This document shows positions 3,665 through 39,128 of a stretch of 64,000 bases of DNA, in pieces (within the stretch, counting starts at the first letter, position 1; each line of letters opens with the position of its first letter). The translations under genes were made by a program, and so were the position numbers. Source of the stretch: Escherichia coli. GTDB lineage: Bacteria; Pseudomonadota; Gammaproteobacteria; Enterobacterales; Enterobacteriaceae. The stretch lies in assembly GCF_003334335.1 (NCBI RefSeq), contig NZ_QOWQ01000013.1; one strand, written 5' to 3'. The notes below the pieces were generated by a model, which saw only the letters and a program-made list of their open reading frames with translations, was not told the origin of the DNA and did no database searches.

Positions 3665-3942
3665 GATAGTATTTCTCTTTAAACAGCTTGTTAGGGGGAT
3701 GTAACCGGTCTGCCCTGATGATATCACGACGCAACGTCAGCGCAACCGCCGACAAGACGGTTATCGCCAGGCGAGACTGTTTCGGATTTCTGACACTGCG
3801 TTGATATCGCCCGCCATTTTTATACAAAACCTCATGTATGCTACGCAGAAGTTATCAAGTACCTCGTAGCGTATATACTTCTTAAACAATTGGTAACGTT
3901 TACACAGGAAAGTCATCGCGACCGGCAATAAGAGGGATATGC

Positions 3943-5373
3943 ATGCCAGATTTTTTCTCCTTTATTAACAGCGTCCTTTGGGGATCGGTAATGATTTACC
4001 TGCTCTTCGGCGCAGGTTGTTGGTTCACTTTTCGCACCGGATTTGTGCAGTTTCGCTACATCCGCCAGTTTGGCAAAAGTCTTAAAAATAGCATTCATCC
4101 ACAGCCAGGCGGTTTAACCTCATTTCAGTCATTGTGTACCAGTCTTGCGGCGCGCGTGGGTAGCGGCAACCTGGCCGGCGTTGCGCTGGCTATTACCGCC
4201 GGTGGACCAGGTGCCGTCTTCTGGATGTGGGTTGCCGCGTTTATCGGCATGGCGACCTCGTTTGCCGAATGTTCCCTTGCACAACTTTATAAAGAACGTG
4301 ACGTCAATGGGCAGTTTCGTGGCGGACCGGCATGGTATATGGCGCGCGGGCTGGGGATGCGCTGGATGGGCGTTCTGTTCGCCGTCTTTTTGCTCATCGC
4401 CTACGGCATAATTTTCAGCGGAGTTCAGGCAAACGCTGTTGCCCGAGCCCTGAGTTTTTCTTTTGATTTTCCCCCGCTGGTGACAGGCATTATTCTCGCT
4501 GTCTTTACTCTGCTGGCAATCACTCGCGGTCTTCATGGCGTCGCCCGGCTCATGCAGGGGTTTGTCCCGTTGATGGCGATAATCTGGGTACTGACCAGCC
4601 TGGTGATTTGCGTAATGAATATCGGGCAACTTCCCCACGTCATTTGGTCTATTTTTGAGAGTGCTTTTGGCTGGCAGGAAGCGGCAGGCGGCGCGGCGGG
4701 ATATACCTTAAGCCAGGCGATTACTAACGGTTTTCAGCGCAGTATGTTTTCCAATGAGGCGGGAATGGGTTCGACGCCAAACGCGGCAGCGGCAGCTGCG
4801 TCCTGGCCTCCGCATCCGGCAGCACAAGGGATTGTCCAGATGATTGGCATTTTTATCGACACCCTGGTCATCTGTACGGCAAGCGCCATGCTGATATTAC
4901 TGGCGGGTAACGGCACAACCTACATGCCGCTGGAAGGTATTCAGCTTATCCAGAAGGCGATGCGGGTGCTAATGGGTTCCTGGGGTGCTGAATTTGTTAC
5001 CCTCGTGGTTATTATGTTTGCCTTCAGCTCCATCGTTGCCAACTACATTTATGCCGAAAACAATCTCTTCTTTTTACGCCTGAACAACCCTAAAGCGATC
5101 TGGTGTTTGCGGATCTGCACCTTCGCAACGGTCATCGGTGGCACCTTGCTAAGTCTTCCGCTGATGTGGCAACTGGCAGATATCATAATGGCCTGCATGG
5201 CTATTACCAATTTGACCGCCATTTTACTGCTCTCGCCTGTGGTTCATACCATTGCCAGTGATTATCTACGCCAGCGTAAACTCGGCGTGCGCCCGGTGTT
5301 TGATCCGTTGCGTTATCCGGATATCGGTCGCCAGCTTTCTCGGGACGCGTGGGATGATGTTTCGCAGGAGTAA
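3943..5373 (+). CDS. yaaJ: alanine/glycine:cation symporter family transporter YaaJ
   Basis: 476-aa polytopic membrane ORF; synteny. Confidence 0.9.
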   Translation: MPDFFSFINSVLWGSVMIYLLFGAGCWFTFRTGFVQFRYIRQFGKSLKNSIHPQPGGLTSFQSLCTSLAARVGSGNLAGVALAITAGGPGAVFWMWVAAFIGMATSFAECSLAQLYKERDVNGQFRGGPAWYMARGLGMRWMGVLFAVFLLIAYGIIFSGVQANAVARALSFSFDFPPLVTGIILAVFTLLAITRGLHGVARLMQGFVPLMAIIWVLTSLVICVMNIGQLPHVIWSIFESAFGWQEAAGGAAGYTLSQAITNGFQRSMFSNEAGMGSTPNAAAAAASWPPHPAAQGIVQMIGIFIDTLVICTASAMLILLAGNGTTYMPLEGIQLIQKAMRVLMGSWGAEFVTLVVIMFAFSSIVANYIYAENNLFFLRLNNPKAIWCLRICTFATVIGGTLLSLPLMWQLADIIMACMAITNLTAILLLSPVVHTIASDYLRQRKLGVRPVFDPLRYPDIGRQLSRDAWDDVSQE

Positions 5374-32958: not shown

Positions 32959-34281
32959 TTATTCGCTGATACGGCGATAGACAGTTGGTGTGCTTTCCGG
33001 TGCTTTATCGGCAAGTTTAATTGCCGCTTTCACCGCTTTCGCCGCTTCCTGCCAGCTGTTTTCGTCTTTCGCGTGGATAACCGCCAGCGGACGCTGACCG
33101 TCTACCTGGTCGCCCAAACGCGCCATATCAGTAAAGCCGACGCTGTAATCGATGGTGTCAGATGCCTGACGACGACCGCCGCCCATTGCAACCACTGCCA
33201 TCCCCAGCGCGCGGGTATCCATTTCACTGACAAAACCTTCGGTATCAGCATAGACTGCTTTCGTCAGCATCGCTGTCGGCAGATACTTCGCGTAGTTCTC
33301 AACGAAGTCGGTCGGGCCTTTTTGTGCCGCTACCATACGACCAAAGACTTCTGCCGCTTTACCGTTGTCCAGCACCGCCTGCAATTTCGCGCGCGCTTCG
33401 GCGTCATCTTTCGCCAGTTTGCCGGAGATCAGCATCTCCACACACAGCGCCATCGTGACATCAAACAGACGCGGGTTACGATATTCACCCGTCAGGAACT
33501 GCACCGCTTCACGAACTTCAACCGCGTTACCGGCACTGGAGGCCAGCACCTGATTCATATCGGTGAGCAGCGCGGTGGTGCGCACGCCAGCGCCGTTAGC
33601 CACGCCAACAATCGCTTCAGCAAGGGCTTCAGAGAGTTCGTAGGTCGGCATAAATGCACCGCTACCCACTTTCACGTCCATCACCAGCGCATCCAGACCT
33701 TCCGCCAGTTTCTTCGCCAGGATCGAGGCAGTGATCAGCGGGATGGAGTCCACGGTTGCGGTAATATCACGGGTCGCGTAGAAACGTTTATCCGCCGGAG
33801 CCAGTGAGCTGGTCTGACCGATAATCGCCACGCCGACGTCTTTAATAATTTCGCGGAAACGGTTGTCATCCGGGAAAATGTCGAAGCCAGGGATGGATTC
33901 CAGTTTGTCGAGCGTACCGCCAGTATGACCGAGGCCGCGACCGGAGATCATCGGAATATAGCCGCCGCAGGCAGCGACCATCGGCCCCAACATCAGCGAA
34001 GTGACGTCGCCGACGCCACCAGTGGAATGTTTATCAACAATCGGGCCATTCAGATGCAGGCTTTTCCAGTCGAGAACGGTTCCTGAATCTCGCATCGCCA
34101 TGGTCAGCGAGACACGCTCAGGCATTGTCATATCGTGGAAGAAAATGGTCATCGCGAGGGCGGCAATCTGCCCTTCGGAGATAGTGTTGTCGCGAATACC
34201 GTTGATAAAGAAACGAATTTCTTCATCGCTCAGCGCATGACCATCACGTTTTTTACGAATAATTTCTTGTGCGAGAAACAA
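32959..34281 (-). CDS. deoA: thymidine phosphorylase
   Basis: 440-aa [51 protein letters not shown]. Confidence 0.95.
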
Positions 34282-34407: not shown

Positions 34408-35187
34408 TTAGTAGCTGCTGGCGCTCTTACCGTCGCCGTGGCCCAGCGCTTTCAACAGGCTTGCCAGCAGGCTGGAAGCGCCAAAGCGGTAGTGACGCGC
34501 ATCTGCCCAGTCAGCACCGAACAGTTCATCTGCAATCGCGAGATATTTCTGCGCATCTTCCGCAGTACGCACGCCGCCCGCTGGTTTGAAACCAACGGTT
34601 TTTTCTACGCCCATATCACGGATCACTTCCATCATGATGCGCGCGCTTTCCGGCGTCGCGTTCACAGCCACTTTACCGGTAGAGGTTTTGATGAAGTCCG
34701 CACCCGCTTTGATGGAGATTTCAGACGCTTTACGGATCAGCGCTTCGTCTTTTAGTTCGCCGGTTTCGATGATCACTTTCAGCAGTACATTCGCTGCCGC
34801 GCAAGCCTCTTTACAGGCTTTCACCAGGTCAAAACCAACCTGCTCGTTACCCGCCATCAGCGCGCGGTACGGGAACACCACGTCAACTTCATCGGCACCG
34901 TAGGCGATTGCCGCACGGGTTTCTGCCAGCGCGATTTCGATGTCGTCGTTACCGTGTGGGAAGTTGGTTACCGTAGCAATACGGATTTCCGGGGTGCCCT
35001 GCTCTTTCAGTGTTTTGCGAGCAATCGGGATAAAGCGAGGATAGATACAGATAGCGGCGGTATTGCCGACCGGGGTTTTGGCCTGATGACACAGAGCAAT
35101 TACTTTCTCGTCGGTGTCGTCGTCATTCAGGGTGGTCAGGTCCATTAATTTCAGTGCACGCAGGCTGCTTGCTTTCAGATCAGTCAT
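34408..35187 (-). CDS. deoC: deoxyribose-phosphate aldolase
   Basis: ORF 34408..35211 trimmed to [50 protein letters not shown] (259 aa). Confidence 0.95.
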
Positions 35188-35231: not shown

Positions 35232-35247
35232 TGTTAGTATTCTAACA
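35232..35247. promoter_or_regulatory. DeoR operator O2 (deoP2)
   Basis: TGTTAGTATTCTAACA near-palindrome about 45 bp upstream of deoC start; exactly 599 bp from the perfect palindrome at 35831, matching the published O1-O2 spacing. Confidence 0.7.
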
Positions 35248-35444
35248 TCTACTCCGCAACACACTTCGATATACATCACAATTAAGGAAATCTACTTACA
35301 AGTTTGCATCACTGTAATGCGATCTGGTTCAAATAATTCACTTTCAAATGAATGCGTCAGTGGTGGCAAACGCATCAGGATCAAAGTGAACATCACGAAA
35401 CTTCTTACAATGGCGCATCACCTTCGGCATAAAAGGAAAAGAAG

Positions 35445-36995
35445 ATGCCCACTTCTCATGAAAATGCACTGCAACAACGTTGCCAGCAAATTGTCACCAG
35501 CCCAGTGCTTAGCCCGGAGCAGAAGCGCCATTTTCTGGCACTGGAAGCAGAAAACAATCTGCCTTATCCGCAGCTGCCTGCCGAGGCCCGCCGCGCGCTG
35601 GATGAGGGTGTAATCTGCGATATGTTTGAAGGTCATGCGCCGTACAAACCGCGCTATGTCTTACCCGATTACGCCCGTTTTCTGGCGAACGGTTCCGAAT
35701 GGCTGGAGCTGGAAGGCGCGAAAGATCTTGATGACGCACTCTCTCTGCTGACCATTCTTTACCACCACGTACCGTCGGTCACATCGATGCCGGTCTACCT
35801 GGGGCAACTGGATGCGTTGTTGCAACCGTATGTTAGAATTCTAACACAAGACGAGATCGATGTTCGAATAAAACGTTTCTGGCGTTACCTCGACAGAACC
35901 CTGCCAGACGCCTTTATGCACGCCAATATCGGCCCGTCTGATTCGCCCATTACCCGCGCGATCTTACGTGCAGACGCAGAGTTGAAGCAGGTTTCACCGA
36001 ACCTGACCTTTATCTACGATCCTGAAATCACCCCTGATGACCTGCTGCTGGAAGTGGCGAAGAACATCTGTGAATGTAGCAAACCGCACATCGCCAACGG
36101 TCCGGTGCATGATAAAATTTTCACAAAAGGGGGCTACGGGATTGTGAGCTGTTACAACTCACTGCCGCTGGCGGGTGGTGGCAGCACGCTGGTACGCCTT
36201 AACCTGAAAGCCATTGCCGAGCGCAGCGAATCGCTGGATGACTTCTTTACGCGCACTCTACCGCACTACTGCCAGCAGCAGATCGCCATCATCGATGCGC
36301 GGTGTGAATTCCTCTATCAACAATCACACTTCTTTGAGAATAGCTTCCTGGTGAAAGAAGGGCTGATTAACCCTGAACGTTTTGTGCCAATGTTTGGCAT
36401 GTATGGGCTGGCGGAAGCGGTTAACTTGCTGTGTGAGAAAGAAGGGATTGCCGCACGTTACGGTAAAGAAGCCGCCGCAAATGAAGTGGGTTATCGCATC
36501 AGCGCGCAACTGGCGGAGTTTGTCGCCAATACCCCCGTGAAATATGGCTGGCAAAAACGCGCCATGTTACACGCACAGTCGGGGATCAGTTCCGATATCG
36601 GCACCACGCCGGGCGCGCGTTTGCCGTATGGCGATGAGCCAGATCCGATCACCCATCTGCAAACTGTCGCCCCGCATCATGCTTATTATTATTCCGGCAT
36701 CAGCGACATTCTGACCCTCGACGAAACCATCAAACGTAACCCGCAGGCACTGGTACAGCTTTGCCTCGGTGCCTTTAAAGCCGGAATGCGTGAATTTACC
36801 GCCAATGTCAGCGGTAACGATCTGGTTCGCGTTACCGGTTATATGGTGCGTTTGTCGGATTTAGAAAAATATCGCGCCGAAGGTTCACGCACCAACACCA
36901 CCTGGCTGGGCGAAGAAGCCGCACGCAACACTCGTATTCTGGAACGCCAGCCGCGCGTGATAAGCCATGAACAGCAGATGCGCTTTAGTCAGTAA
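35445..36995 (+). CDS. yjjI: glycyl-radical-enzyme-like protein YjjI (DUF3029), substrate unknown
   Basis: 516-aa ORF with C-terminal glycyl radical motif RVTGY; adjacent activase gene. Confidence 0.9.
35831..35846. promoter_or_regulatory. DeoR operator O1 (deoP1)
   Basis: perfect 16-bp palindrome TGTTAGAATTCTAACA; lies inside the annotated yjjI reading frame (encodes ...YVRILTQ...). Confidence 0.7.
36110..36125. promoter_or_regulatory. candidate DeoR distal operator OE
   Basis: TGATAAAATTTTCACA matches DeoR consensus at 12 of 16 positions, 279 bp beyond O1 (published OE is about 278 bp upstream of O1). Confidence 0.4.
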
Positions 36996-37830
36996 GATTA
37001 TCCCCTTCTCCTGCGTTGACGGGCCAGGCAGTCGTCTGGCTCTGTTTTTGCAGGGCTGCAATCTGCGCTGCAAAAACTGTCACAATCCGTGGACGATGGG
37101 ACGCTGCAATGATTGCGGAGAGTGCGTGCCACAGTGTCCGCATCAGGCGTTGCAGATTGTTGACGGCAAAGTGATGTGGAACGCTGTGGTCTGCGAGCAA
37201 TGTGATACCTGCCTGAAGATGTGTCCGCAACATGCCACGCCGATGGCGCAATCCATGAGCGTGGACGAAGTGCTTAGCCATGTCCGCAAAGCAGTGCTGT
37301 TTATCGAAGGGGTAACGGTAAGCGGCGGTGAAGCCACGACCCAGCTGCCGTTTGTGGTGGCGCTGTTTACTGCTATCAAAAACGATCCGCAACTGCACCA
37401 TCTCACCTGTCTGGTGGACAGTAACGGTATGTTGAGCGAAACCGGCTGGGAAAAATTGCTTCCGGTGTGCGACGGCGCAATGCTCGATCTCAAAGCGTGG
37501 GGGAGCGAATGTCATCAGCAATTAACCGGACGCGATAATCAGCAGATTAAGCGCAGCATCTGTTTGCTGGCAGAGCGTGGCAAGCTGGCAGAACTGCGTT
37601 TGCTGGTAATCCCTGGCCAGGTGGATTATTTGCAACACATCGAAGAACTGGCGGCGTTTATCAAGGGACTTGGCGATGTTCCGGTACGCCTGAACGCGTT
37701 TCATGCCCACGGCGTGTATGGCGAGGCGCAAAGCTGGGCGAGCGCCACGCCGGAAGACGTTGAGCCGTTGGCTGATGCATTAAAGGTGCGCGGGGTGAGC
37801 CGGTTGATATTTCCGGCGCTCTATTTGTGA
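36967..37830 (+). CDS. yjjW: glycyl-radical enzyme activating protein YjjW (radical SAM)
   Basis: 287-aa ORF with CNLRCKNC radical-SAM CX3CX2C motif and extra ferredoxin-like Cys clusters ([22 protein letters not shown]); overlaps yjjI 3-prime end by 29 bp. Confidence 0.9.

Positions 37831-39128
<1,298 letters not shown>

Follow-up and report, generated by a model that had tools for sequence, protein, structure and literature searches.

The DNA analysed here (the window) is a 64,000-nucleotide stretch of Escherichia coli from contig NZ_QOWQ01000013.1 of assembly GCF_003334335.1, and our subject within it is yjjI-yjjW, an adjacent gene pair for a glycyl-radical enzyme and a radical S-adenosylmethionine (SAM) activase. 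The region corresponds to yjjI-yjjW-yjjV of Escherichia coli, with the K-12 locus tags b4380 (yjjI) and b4379 (yjjW), and the divergent genes deoC (34408-35187, minus strand) and deoA (32959-34281, minus strand) lie just upstream of yjjI. The two genes and their principal motifs are arranged as follows.

35445-36995, plus strand: yjjI, encoding a YjjI-family glycyl-radical enzyme of 516 aa
36147-36158, plus strand: Cys loop S235-C236-Y237-N238, with C236 the putative thiyl-radical cysteine
36828-36842, plus strand: glycyl-radical motif R462-V-T-G465-Y466 (RVTGY, residues 462-466), aligned with RVSGY of pyruvate formate-lyase (PFL)
36967-36995, plus strand: 29-bp overlap of the end of yjjI with the start of yjjW
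36967-37830, plus strand: yjjW, encoding a YjjW-family radical-SAM activase of 287 aa
37057-37080, plus strand: radical-SAM motif CNLRCKNC (C31, C35, C38; residues 31-38), of the form CX3CX2C
37105-37224, plus strand: ferredoxin-like insert with two CX2CX2CX3C motifs (C47-C57 and C76-C86), the probable sites of two auxiliary [4Fe-4S] clusters

Both open reading frames (ORFs) are intact and co-directional, at exactly the positions and with the 29-bp overlap given in a preliminary description of this DNA. They are not due to chance: they match TIGR04040, TIGR04041 and PF11230, and both genes are annotated in 5423 of the 5426 complete E. coli genomes. Neither is the pair itself new, being already named in RefSeq ('YjjI family glycine radical enzyme' and 'YjjW family glycine radical enzyme activase'), Pfam and NCBIfam. 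YjjI scores 787 bits against TIGR04040 (cut-off 498), end to end over residues 11-504, and E 2.8e-220 against Pfam PF11230 ('Glycyl radical enzyme YjjI-like'), while YjjW scores 397 bits against TIGR04041 (cut-off 250). Both NCBIfam models are 'hypothetical equivalogs', that is, recognised families without an assigned function. The earlier statement that the pair has no known substrate held in our full-text literature searches, which returned no biochemical assignment of YjjI or YjjW and had most subscription journals outside their coverage. The overlap between the genes is kept across the Enterobacterales and in Gilliamella, and the Vibrionaceae have a gap instead; the translational coupling that had been read from the overlap is therefore a possibility.

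Searching all PDB chains with the single YjjI sequence returned nothing relevant, and pairwise similarity to the glycyl-radical 1,2-eliminases was not detectable. A profile of 25 diverse homologues reaches PFL (E 3.5e-4), YbiW, class III ribonucleotide reductase (RNR; NrdD), HPAD and BSS, with E-values of 1e-3 for the 1,2-eliminases. The profile alignment lays the YjjI segment YGVVSCYN on YAIACCVS of PFL, such that C236 coincides with C419 and S235 with C418; it also pairs R251 with the substrate-binding R435, and LVRVTGY with TIRVSGY at G734. An AlphaFold2 model computed from the alignment of the 25 homologues (predicted local distance difference test, pLDDT, 91.6; predicted template modelling score, pTM, 0.91) contains the full ten-stranded alpha/beta barrel. 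As modelled, YjjI is a complete but stripped-down glycyl-radical barrel that lies marginally nearest NrdD, a placement with which hhalign agrees (407 columns aligned with E. coli NrdD, E 5e-5), and it is the smallest full-barrel glycyl-radical enzyme in this comparison. The family models, the predicted fold and the invariant Gly and Cys described below together support the identification, made in the preliminary description, of YjjI as a glycyl-radical enzyme with a dedicated activase. The same description had called YjjI otherwise unlike assigned enzymes of this type, which does not hold in view of the profile match to PFL and the closeness of the model to class III RNR.

Residue conservation was assessed in 50 sequences spanning the YjjI family down to about 33% identity. 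The C-terminal RVTGY motif, already noted from the sequence, survives alignment, and its G465 is invariant in all 50, as are S235, C236, N238, R251, E305, D123, D150, H159, H376, Q378, R392 and R462; Y237 is present in 48. Beyond the catalytic Gly and Cys, about 55 positions reach a conservation of 95% or more across phyla. C236 is the sole invariant cysteine of the family, C58 being found in 40 of the 50 sequences (80%), and C440, the only cysteine in the last 180 residues, is not conserved. From its position in these alignments, C236 would be the thiyl-radical cysteine on the opposing finger loop. The invariant arginines (R70, R251 and R392, with R251 the counterpart of PFL R435) hint at an anionic, for example phosphorylated, substrate.

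YjjI fits none of the defined mechanistic subclasses (PFL, NrdD and eliminase). NrdD proteins are 605-712 aa long, compared with 516 aa for YjjI, and carry an ATP-cone and a C-terminal Cys4 zinc site before the Gly loop, whereas YjjI has no zinc site and no ATP-cone domain was found in it by Pfam. The second catalytic cysteine of NrdD (C175 in E. coli, C79 in T4) has no equivalent in YjjI, hhalign placing R70/Y71 there with moderate alignment confidence. The NRDD family model (Pfam PF13597) matches YjjI only at E 0.6, over residues 248-360, which falls short of family membership, and no NrdD model is among the NCBIfam results for YjjI. The NrdD activase NrdG, at 154 aa, is without the two-cluster ferredoxin insert that YjjW carries. 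The 1,2-eliminases (CutC, the glycerol and propanediol dehydratases, HypD, IslA and YbiW/PflD) are larger still at 760-870 aa and display Cys-x-Glu on the Cys loop, with the Glu as general base; the corresponding loop of YjjI reads Cys-Tyr-Asn, with C236 and N238 invariant. Judging from conservation, E305, D150 or H159 might stand in for the eliminase Glu. PFL (PflB, 759 aa) requires the adjacent cysteines C418-C419, where YjjI has the invariant pair S235-C236, and its activase PflA, unlike YjjW, is without the ferredoxin insert. A single-cysteine enzyme without a reductant site would point to redox-neutral radical chemistry. The reaction of YbiW and PflD was recently identified as C-O cleavage of 1,5-anhydroglucitol-6-phosphate and 1,5-anhydromannitol-6-phosphate (PMC12441222), and E. 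coli glycyl-radical enzymes can therefore open sugar-phosphate rings.

The activase is equally well defined. The CX3CX2C motif and the two ferredoxin-like cysteine clusters that had been noticed in YjjW were located at residues 31-38, 47-57 and 76-86, and Pfam assigns it a Radical_SAM domain together with a 4Fe-4S (Fer4) dicluster. The next-best NCBIfam matches after TIGR04041 are all glycyl-radical activases (the HypD, PFLE/PFLC, sulfopropanediol dehydratase, CutC, HPAD and BssD activases). An activase gene lies directly downstream of yjjI in all 80 genome loci and in 81 of the 92 metagenome loci described below. Several distant lineages (L083, L095, L152, L105, L148, L171 and others) have activases of only 238-251 aa without the ferredoxin insert, so that the YjjI-activase system does not always include the auxiliary clusters.

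Alignment of the deoC-yjjI intergenic region from ten genera revealed two invariant blocks near yjjI, GGATCAA and TACAnT, which fall within the following candidate promoter elements.

35371-35384, plus strand: putative FNR-type site CGCATCAGGATCAA, with the right half GGATCAA (35378-35384) invariant
35406-35411, plus strand: putative yjjI -10 hexamer TACAAT, with TACAnT invariant

The centre of the FNR-type site is about 40-42 nt from the predicted transcription start, a distance typical of class II FNR promoters, and the half-site and hexamer together would constitute such a promoter of yjjI. They were exposed only by the multi-genus alignment and not by a consensus FNR scan. Two other FNR-box candidates were rejected: that at 35266-35279, with two mismatches to the consensus (TTGAT-N4-ATCAA), is the deoP2 CRP site according to CRP chromatin immunoprecipitation (ChIP; PMC4287617), and that at 35319-35332, with three mismatches, has a spacing that fits the second deoP2 CRP site. 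In line with this promoter, a published FNR ChIP peak falls about 93 bp before the ATG of yjjI, and the same work reports direct activation of yjjI by FNR (PMC3688515); the gene is induced 4.3-fold anaerobically in Yersinia intermedia (PMC3792023). Co-expression groups it with genes of nitrate and nitrite respiration, in a bicluster with narG and nitrogen-metabolism genes with which it has FNR- and NarL-like motifs in common (PMC3228777), and it clusters with the nrf genes in a study of the HU regulon (PMC2634741). Convincing heptamers for a NarL or NsrR role are not visible in the yjjI promoter. A gene for a CRP/FNR-family regulator adjoins YjjI in four distant lineages (L127, L137, L156 and L176-type), which parallels the FNR control in E. 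coli. As to the far end of the intergenic region, deoC begins at a TTG (35211) in the program-made ORF list, while comparison with the K-12 gene (780 nt) indicates the ATG at 35187; the region is therefore 257 bp long, not 233 bp.

The adjacency of yjjI to the deo operon had been taken as a hint of a nucleoside-related role. The deo regulatory DNA is, in part, located inside yjjI itself.

35232-35247, unstranded: DeoR operator O2 (deoP2), TGTTAGTATTCTAACA, in the shared intergenic region, one mismatch to the palindrome
35266-35281 and about 35319-35332: deoP2 CRP sites, the first a CRP ChIP-seq site (PMC4287617), the second placed by spacing
35831-35846, unstranded: DeoR operator O1 and the deoP1 -10 region, a perfect palindrome over yjjI codons V130-T134 (V-R-I-L-T)
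36110-36125, unstranded: candidate DeoR operator OE, TGATAAAATTTTCACA, inside yjjI, weaker, with four mismatches

O1 is 599 bp from O2, and OE is exactly 279 bp beyond O1. The names of the three operators and their spacings follow the deo literature, and the assignment of OE rests on the published spacing. Every one of the 52 deo-adjacent loci has O1 at position +386 of yjjI, and the loci that lack deo do not have it. With deoP1 inside the yjjI ORF, deoP1 transcripts must run antisense through the promoter and 5' part of yjjI. Since deoP1, O1 and OE are all within the ORF in 52 of 52 deo-adjacent loci, the yjjI and deo units cannot easily separate, and the enteric adjacency, partly locked by this overlap, is on its own weak evidence for a common function. 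The hint itself nevertheless has independent support: nucleoside genes accompany the pair in Gilliamella, Providencia, Edwardsiella and many distant lineages.

An exhaustive search of 1.84 billion cluster representatives gave only 541 YjjI matches, about 25 of them full length. A genome scan with a 13-sequence alignment left 80 loci, almost all from Gammaproteobacteria. Metagenomes supplied 99 loci with distant homologues, which are 35-50% identical to E. coli YjjI or to whichever query retrieved them, and 92 of these loci had a recognisable YjjI ORF; at 70% identity these form 34 lineages, 28 of them informative in that each shows at least three neighbouring genes. The hosts among Gammaproteobacteria include Enterobacterales, Gilliamella, Vibrionaceae and Ferrimonas, and those named or inferable elsewhere include Actinomycetota, Oligoflexia, a Bacteroidota contig, Firmicutes (with Spo0A on the same contigs), an archaeon and a contig whose genetic code is probably an alternative one. 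In L088, a short contig (GCA_024449855.1) with no activase adjacent to YjjI, the table 11 translation of the YjjI gene differs from the recorded protein, and the G+C content of 30% suggests a Mollicutes-type code.

Nucleoside-type neighbours occur in 13 of the 28 informative lineages, for which our rough estimate of the chance expectation is about one. Counted by lineage, they are ABC transporters of the BMP family (PF02608; 12 lineages), Rih-type ribonucleoside hydrolases and ribokinase (four each), DeoD-type phosphorylases (three), Cdd (two) and Add (one). In one tight operon (L141) the pair sits inside the transporter genes, in the order binding protein-YjjI-activase-ATPase-permease-permease, and in another (L137) the order is CRP/FNR-type regulator-YjjI-activase-Rih-ribokinase-Rih-binding protein-ATPase-permease. 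In Gilliamella (Orbales), the pair comes last in a co-directional cluster, deoB-deoD-NupG-type permease-add-cpdB-cdd-pdp-(ushA in some)-yjjI-yjjW. In Providencia heimbachae nupC ends 33 bp before yjjI, and in Edwardsiella nupC adjoins yjjW. The nucleoside link of YjjI is now considerably stronger.

Several further features of these loci deserve mention. Two lineages have a pair of neighbouring YjjI paralogues, arranged as YjjI-activase-YjjI (L176) and YjjI-activase-x-YjjI-activase (L179), which suggests local duplication and a possibly diversified substrate range. In L093, a sulfatase-family gene (3806-5341; arylsulfatase/choline-sulfatase-like, 200 bits, below cut-off) is directly upstream of YjjI in a cluster that also has Rih, ADP-ribosylglycohydrolase-like, ribokinase-like and DeoD genes. 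Two lineages that are not related to each other have M20-family amidohydrolase/deacylase genes flanking YjjI (L152, 4472-5731; L161, 10066-11244); enzymes of this family hydrolyse N-carbamoyl and N-acyl compounds in base catabolism, and their presence could hint that a nucleobase-derived product is involved. The small neighbouring ORFs of L152 gave no NCBIfam matches. A purine riboswitch in L148 was discarded because the unit to which it belongs, probably of the xpt-pbuX type, is about 7 kb from YjjI. In the window, the gap between yjjW and yjjV (37833-38358) holds five tandem copies of a 101-bp unit, each matching Rfam RF02564 (naRNA4/CssrE, a nucleoid-associated RNA derived from repetitive extragenic palindromic (REP) elements) at 64-79 bits; the gap is shorter in K-12, at 420 bp compared with 522 bp.

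Overall, the observations are probably best explained by an anaerobic two-gene glycyl-radical system acting on a nucleoside-derived substrate, and it is likely that this substrate is an intact nucleoside or the sugar, sugar phosphate or base of one. In the mechanism that we propose, yjjI-yjjW would be expressed anaerobically, and YjjW would be a radical-SAM enzyme whose [4Fe-4S] sites comprise one for SAM binding and two auxiliary ones and which, together with SAM, abstracts hydrogen from G465 of YjjI. The resulting glycyl radical would be passed to C236, which is located on the opposing finger loop; as a thiyl radical, C236 would then take hydrogen from the substrate inside the minimal 10-stranded barrel. 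The most likely substrates are nucleosides and the pentoses or pentose phosphates derived from them, presumably imported by the nucleoside transporters. The reaction would most likely be redox-neutral, either a radical rearrangement or a 1,2-elimination (C-O or C-N cleavage beside a hydroxylated carbon), and most likely neither NrdD-type reduction nor C-C cleavage of the PFL type. A more ambitious proposal, which we hold tentatively and rate at somewhat less than an even chance, is that YjjI founds a new glycyl-radical class, a minimal, single-cysteine, RNR-like barrel that performs new radical chemistry on an imported nucleoside or its pentose phosphate. One possible reaction under this proposal is an RNR-like abstraction of the 3'-H followed by elimination of a 2'-substituent or of the base, with modified nucleosides that resist hydrolases and phosphorylases as possible substrates.

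A number of observations weigh against a nucleoside-derived substrate or the chemistry suggested for it. About half of the lineages have no nucleoside genes near YjjI, and such neighbours are absent in the Vibrionaceae, Proteus, an actinobacterium, an archaeon and a Bacteroidota lineage; in the Vibrionaceae yjjI is accompanied by genes for a LysR regulator and a LysE-type exporter, and a homologue of 57% identity by a LysR regulator only. Rfam scans of 21 distant loci found no riboswitch or other ligand-specific element upstream of YjjI. Nucleosides are not the only ligands of binding proteins of the BMP family, and the NCBIfam model closest to the BMP-type binding protein is a 'putative B6' transporter, matched below cut-off. 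The eliminase hallmark Cys-x-Glu is absent (C-Y-N instead), and for this reason the type of reaction is a guess. Finally, the co-expression with nitrate/nitrite respiration genes (PMC3228777) is silent on nucleosides.

Some of these points could instead be read to mean that the nucleoside neighbourhood is incidental, with YjjI serving in anaerobic respiration or nitrogen-oxide-linked metabolism, or acting on an unrelated small molecule. This would suit the bicluster with narG and nitrogen genes and its FNR- and NarL-like motifs (PMC3228777), the clustering with nrf in the HU regulon study (PMC2634741) and the Vibrionaceae and 57%-identity loci just described, and the regulatory entanglement explains the enteric deo adjacency. 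However, shared FNR control simply accounts for the nar/nrf co-expression, and nucleoside-type neighbours recur in Gilliamella, in Providencia and in 13 of the 28 informative lineages, mutually 35-50% identical, where roughly one would be expected by chance. We regard an incidental neighbourhood as unlikely. The entanglement could also be taken further, such that YjjI is an inert or regulatory remnant kept in enterics only for the deo promoter and operators embedded in its ORF in all 52 deo-adjacent loci, and indeed we found no phenotype reports in the literature searched. This is very improbable: both genes of the pair are intact in 5423 of 5426 E. coli genomes, conservation across phyla is 95% or higher at the catalytic Gly and Cys and at about 55 further positions, the pair persists where deo genes are not adjacent, and yjjI is activated by FNR (PMC3688515).

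A different possibility accepts the nucleoside link and changes the chemistry. YjjI might be a miniature class III-type reductase that converts a ribonucleoside, ribonucleotide or ribose phosphate to its deoxy form at C2', and DeoA/DeoD, DeoB and DeoC would then cleave the deoxy product to acetaldehyde and glyceraldehyde-3-phosphate, the whole serving as an anaerobic electron sink. The predicted barrel does lie marginally nearest NrdD, but the second catalytic cysteine, the zinc site and the ATP-cone of that enzyme have no counterparts in YjjI, and we consider reduction distinctly improbable. The preferred reading remains redox-neutral chemistry on a nucleoside-derived substrate.

Glycyl-radical enzymes catalyse difficult, oxygen-free chemistry that helps to shape metabolism in the gut, for example the formation of trimethylamine, H2S and skatole. 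Among the E. coli enzymes of this kind in the literature consulted, YjjI appears to be the remaining orphan, PflB, TdcE and NrdD having long been assigned and YbiW/PflD recently (PMC12441222), and it is a core, FNR-activated gene of a model organism. What is new here is the placement of its fold beside class III RNR, its misfit to all of the mechanistic subclasses, the putative class II FNR promoter, the deo regulatory DNA embedded in yjjI as a caveat to arguments from adjacency, and the cross-phylum association with genes for nucleoside uptake and cleavage. This last tie, to nucleoside transporters and nucleoside-cleaving enzymes, yields a short and testable list of substrates, and YjjI should also help to define how small a glycyl-radical scaffold can be and how it is related in evolution to ribonucleotide reductase. 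If YjjI does found a new class, E. coli would be left with no orphan glycyl-radical enzyme, and the pair would represent an oxygen-independent branch of nucleoside catabolism in gut and sediment microbes.

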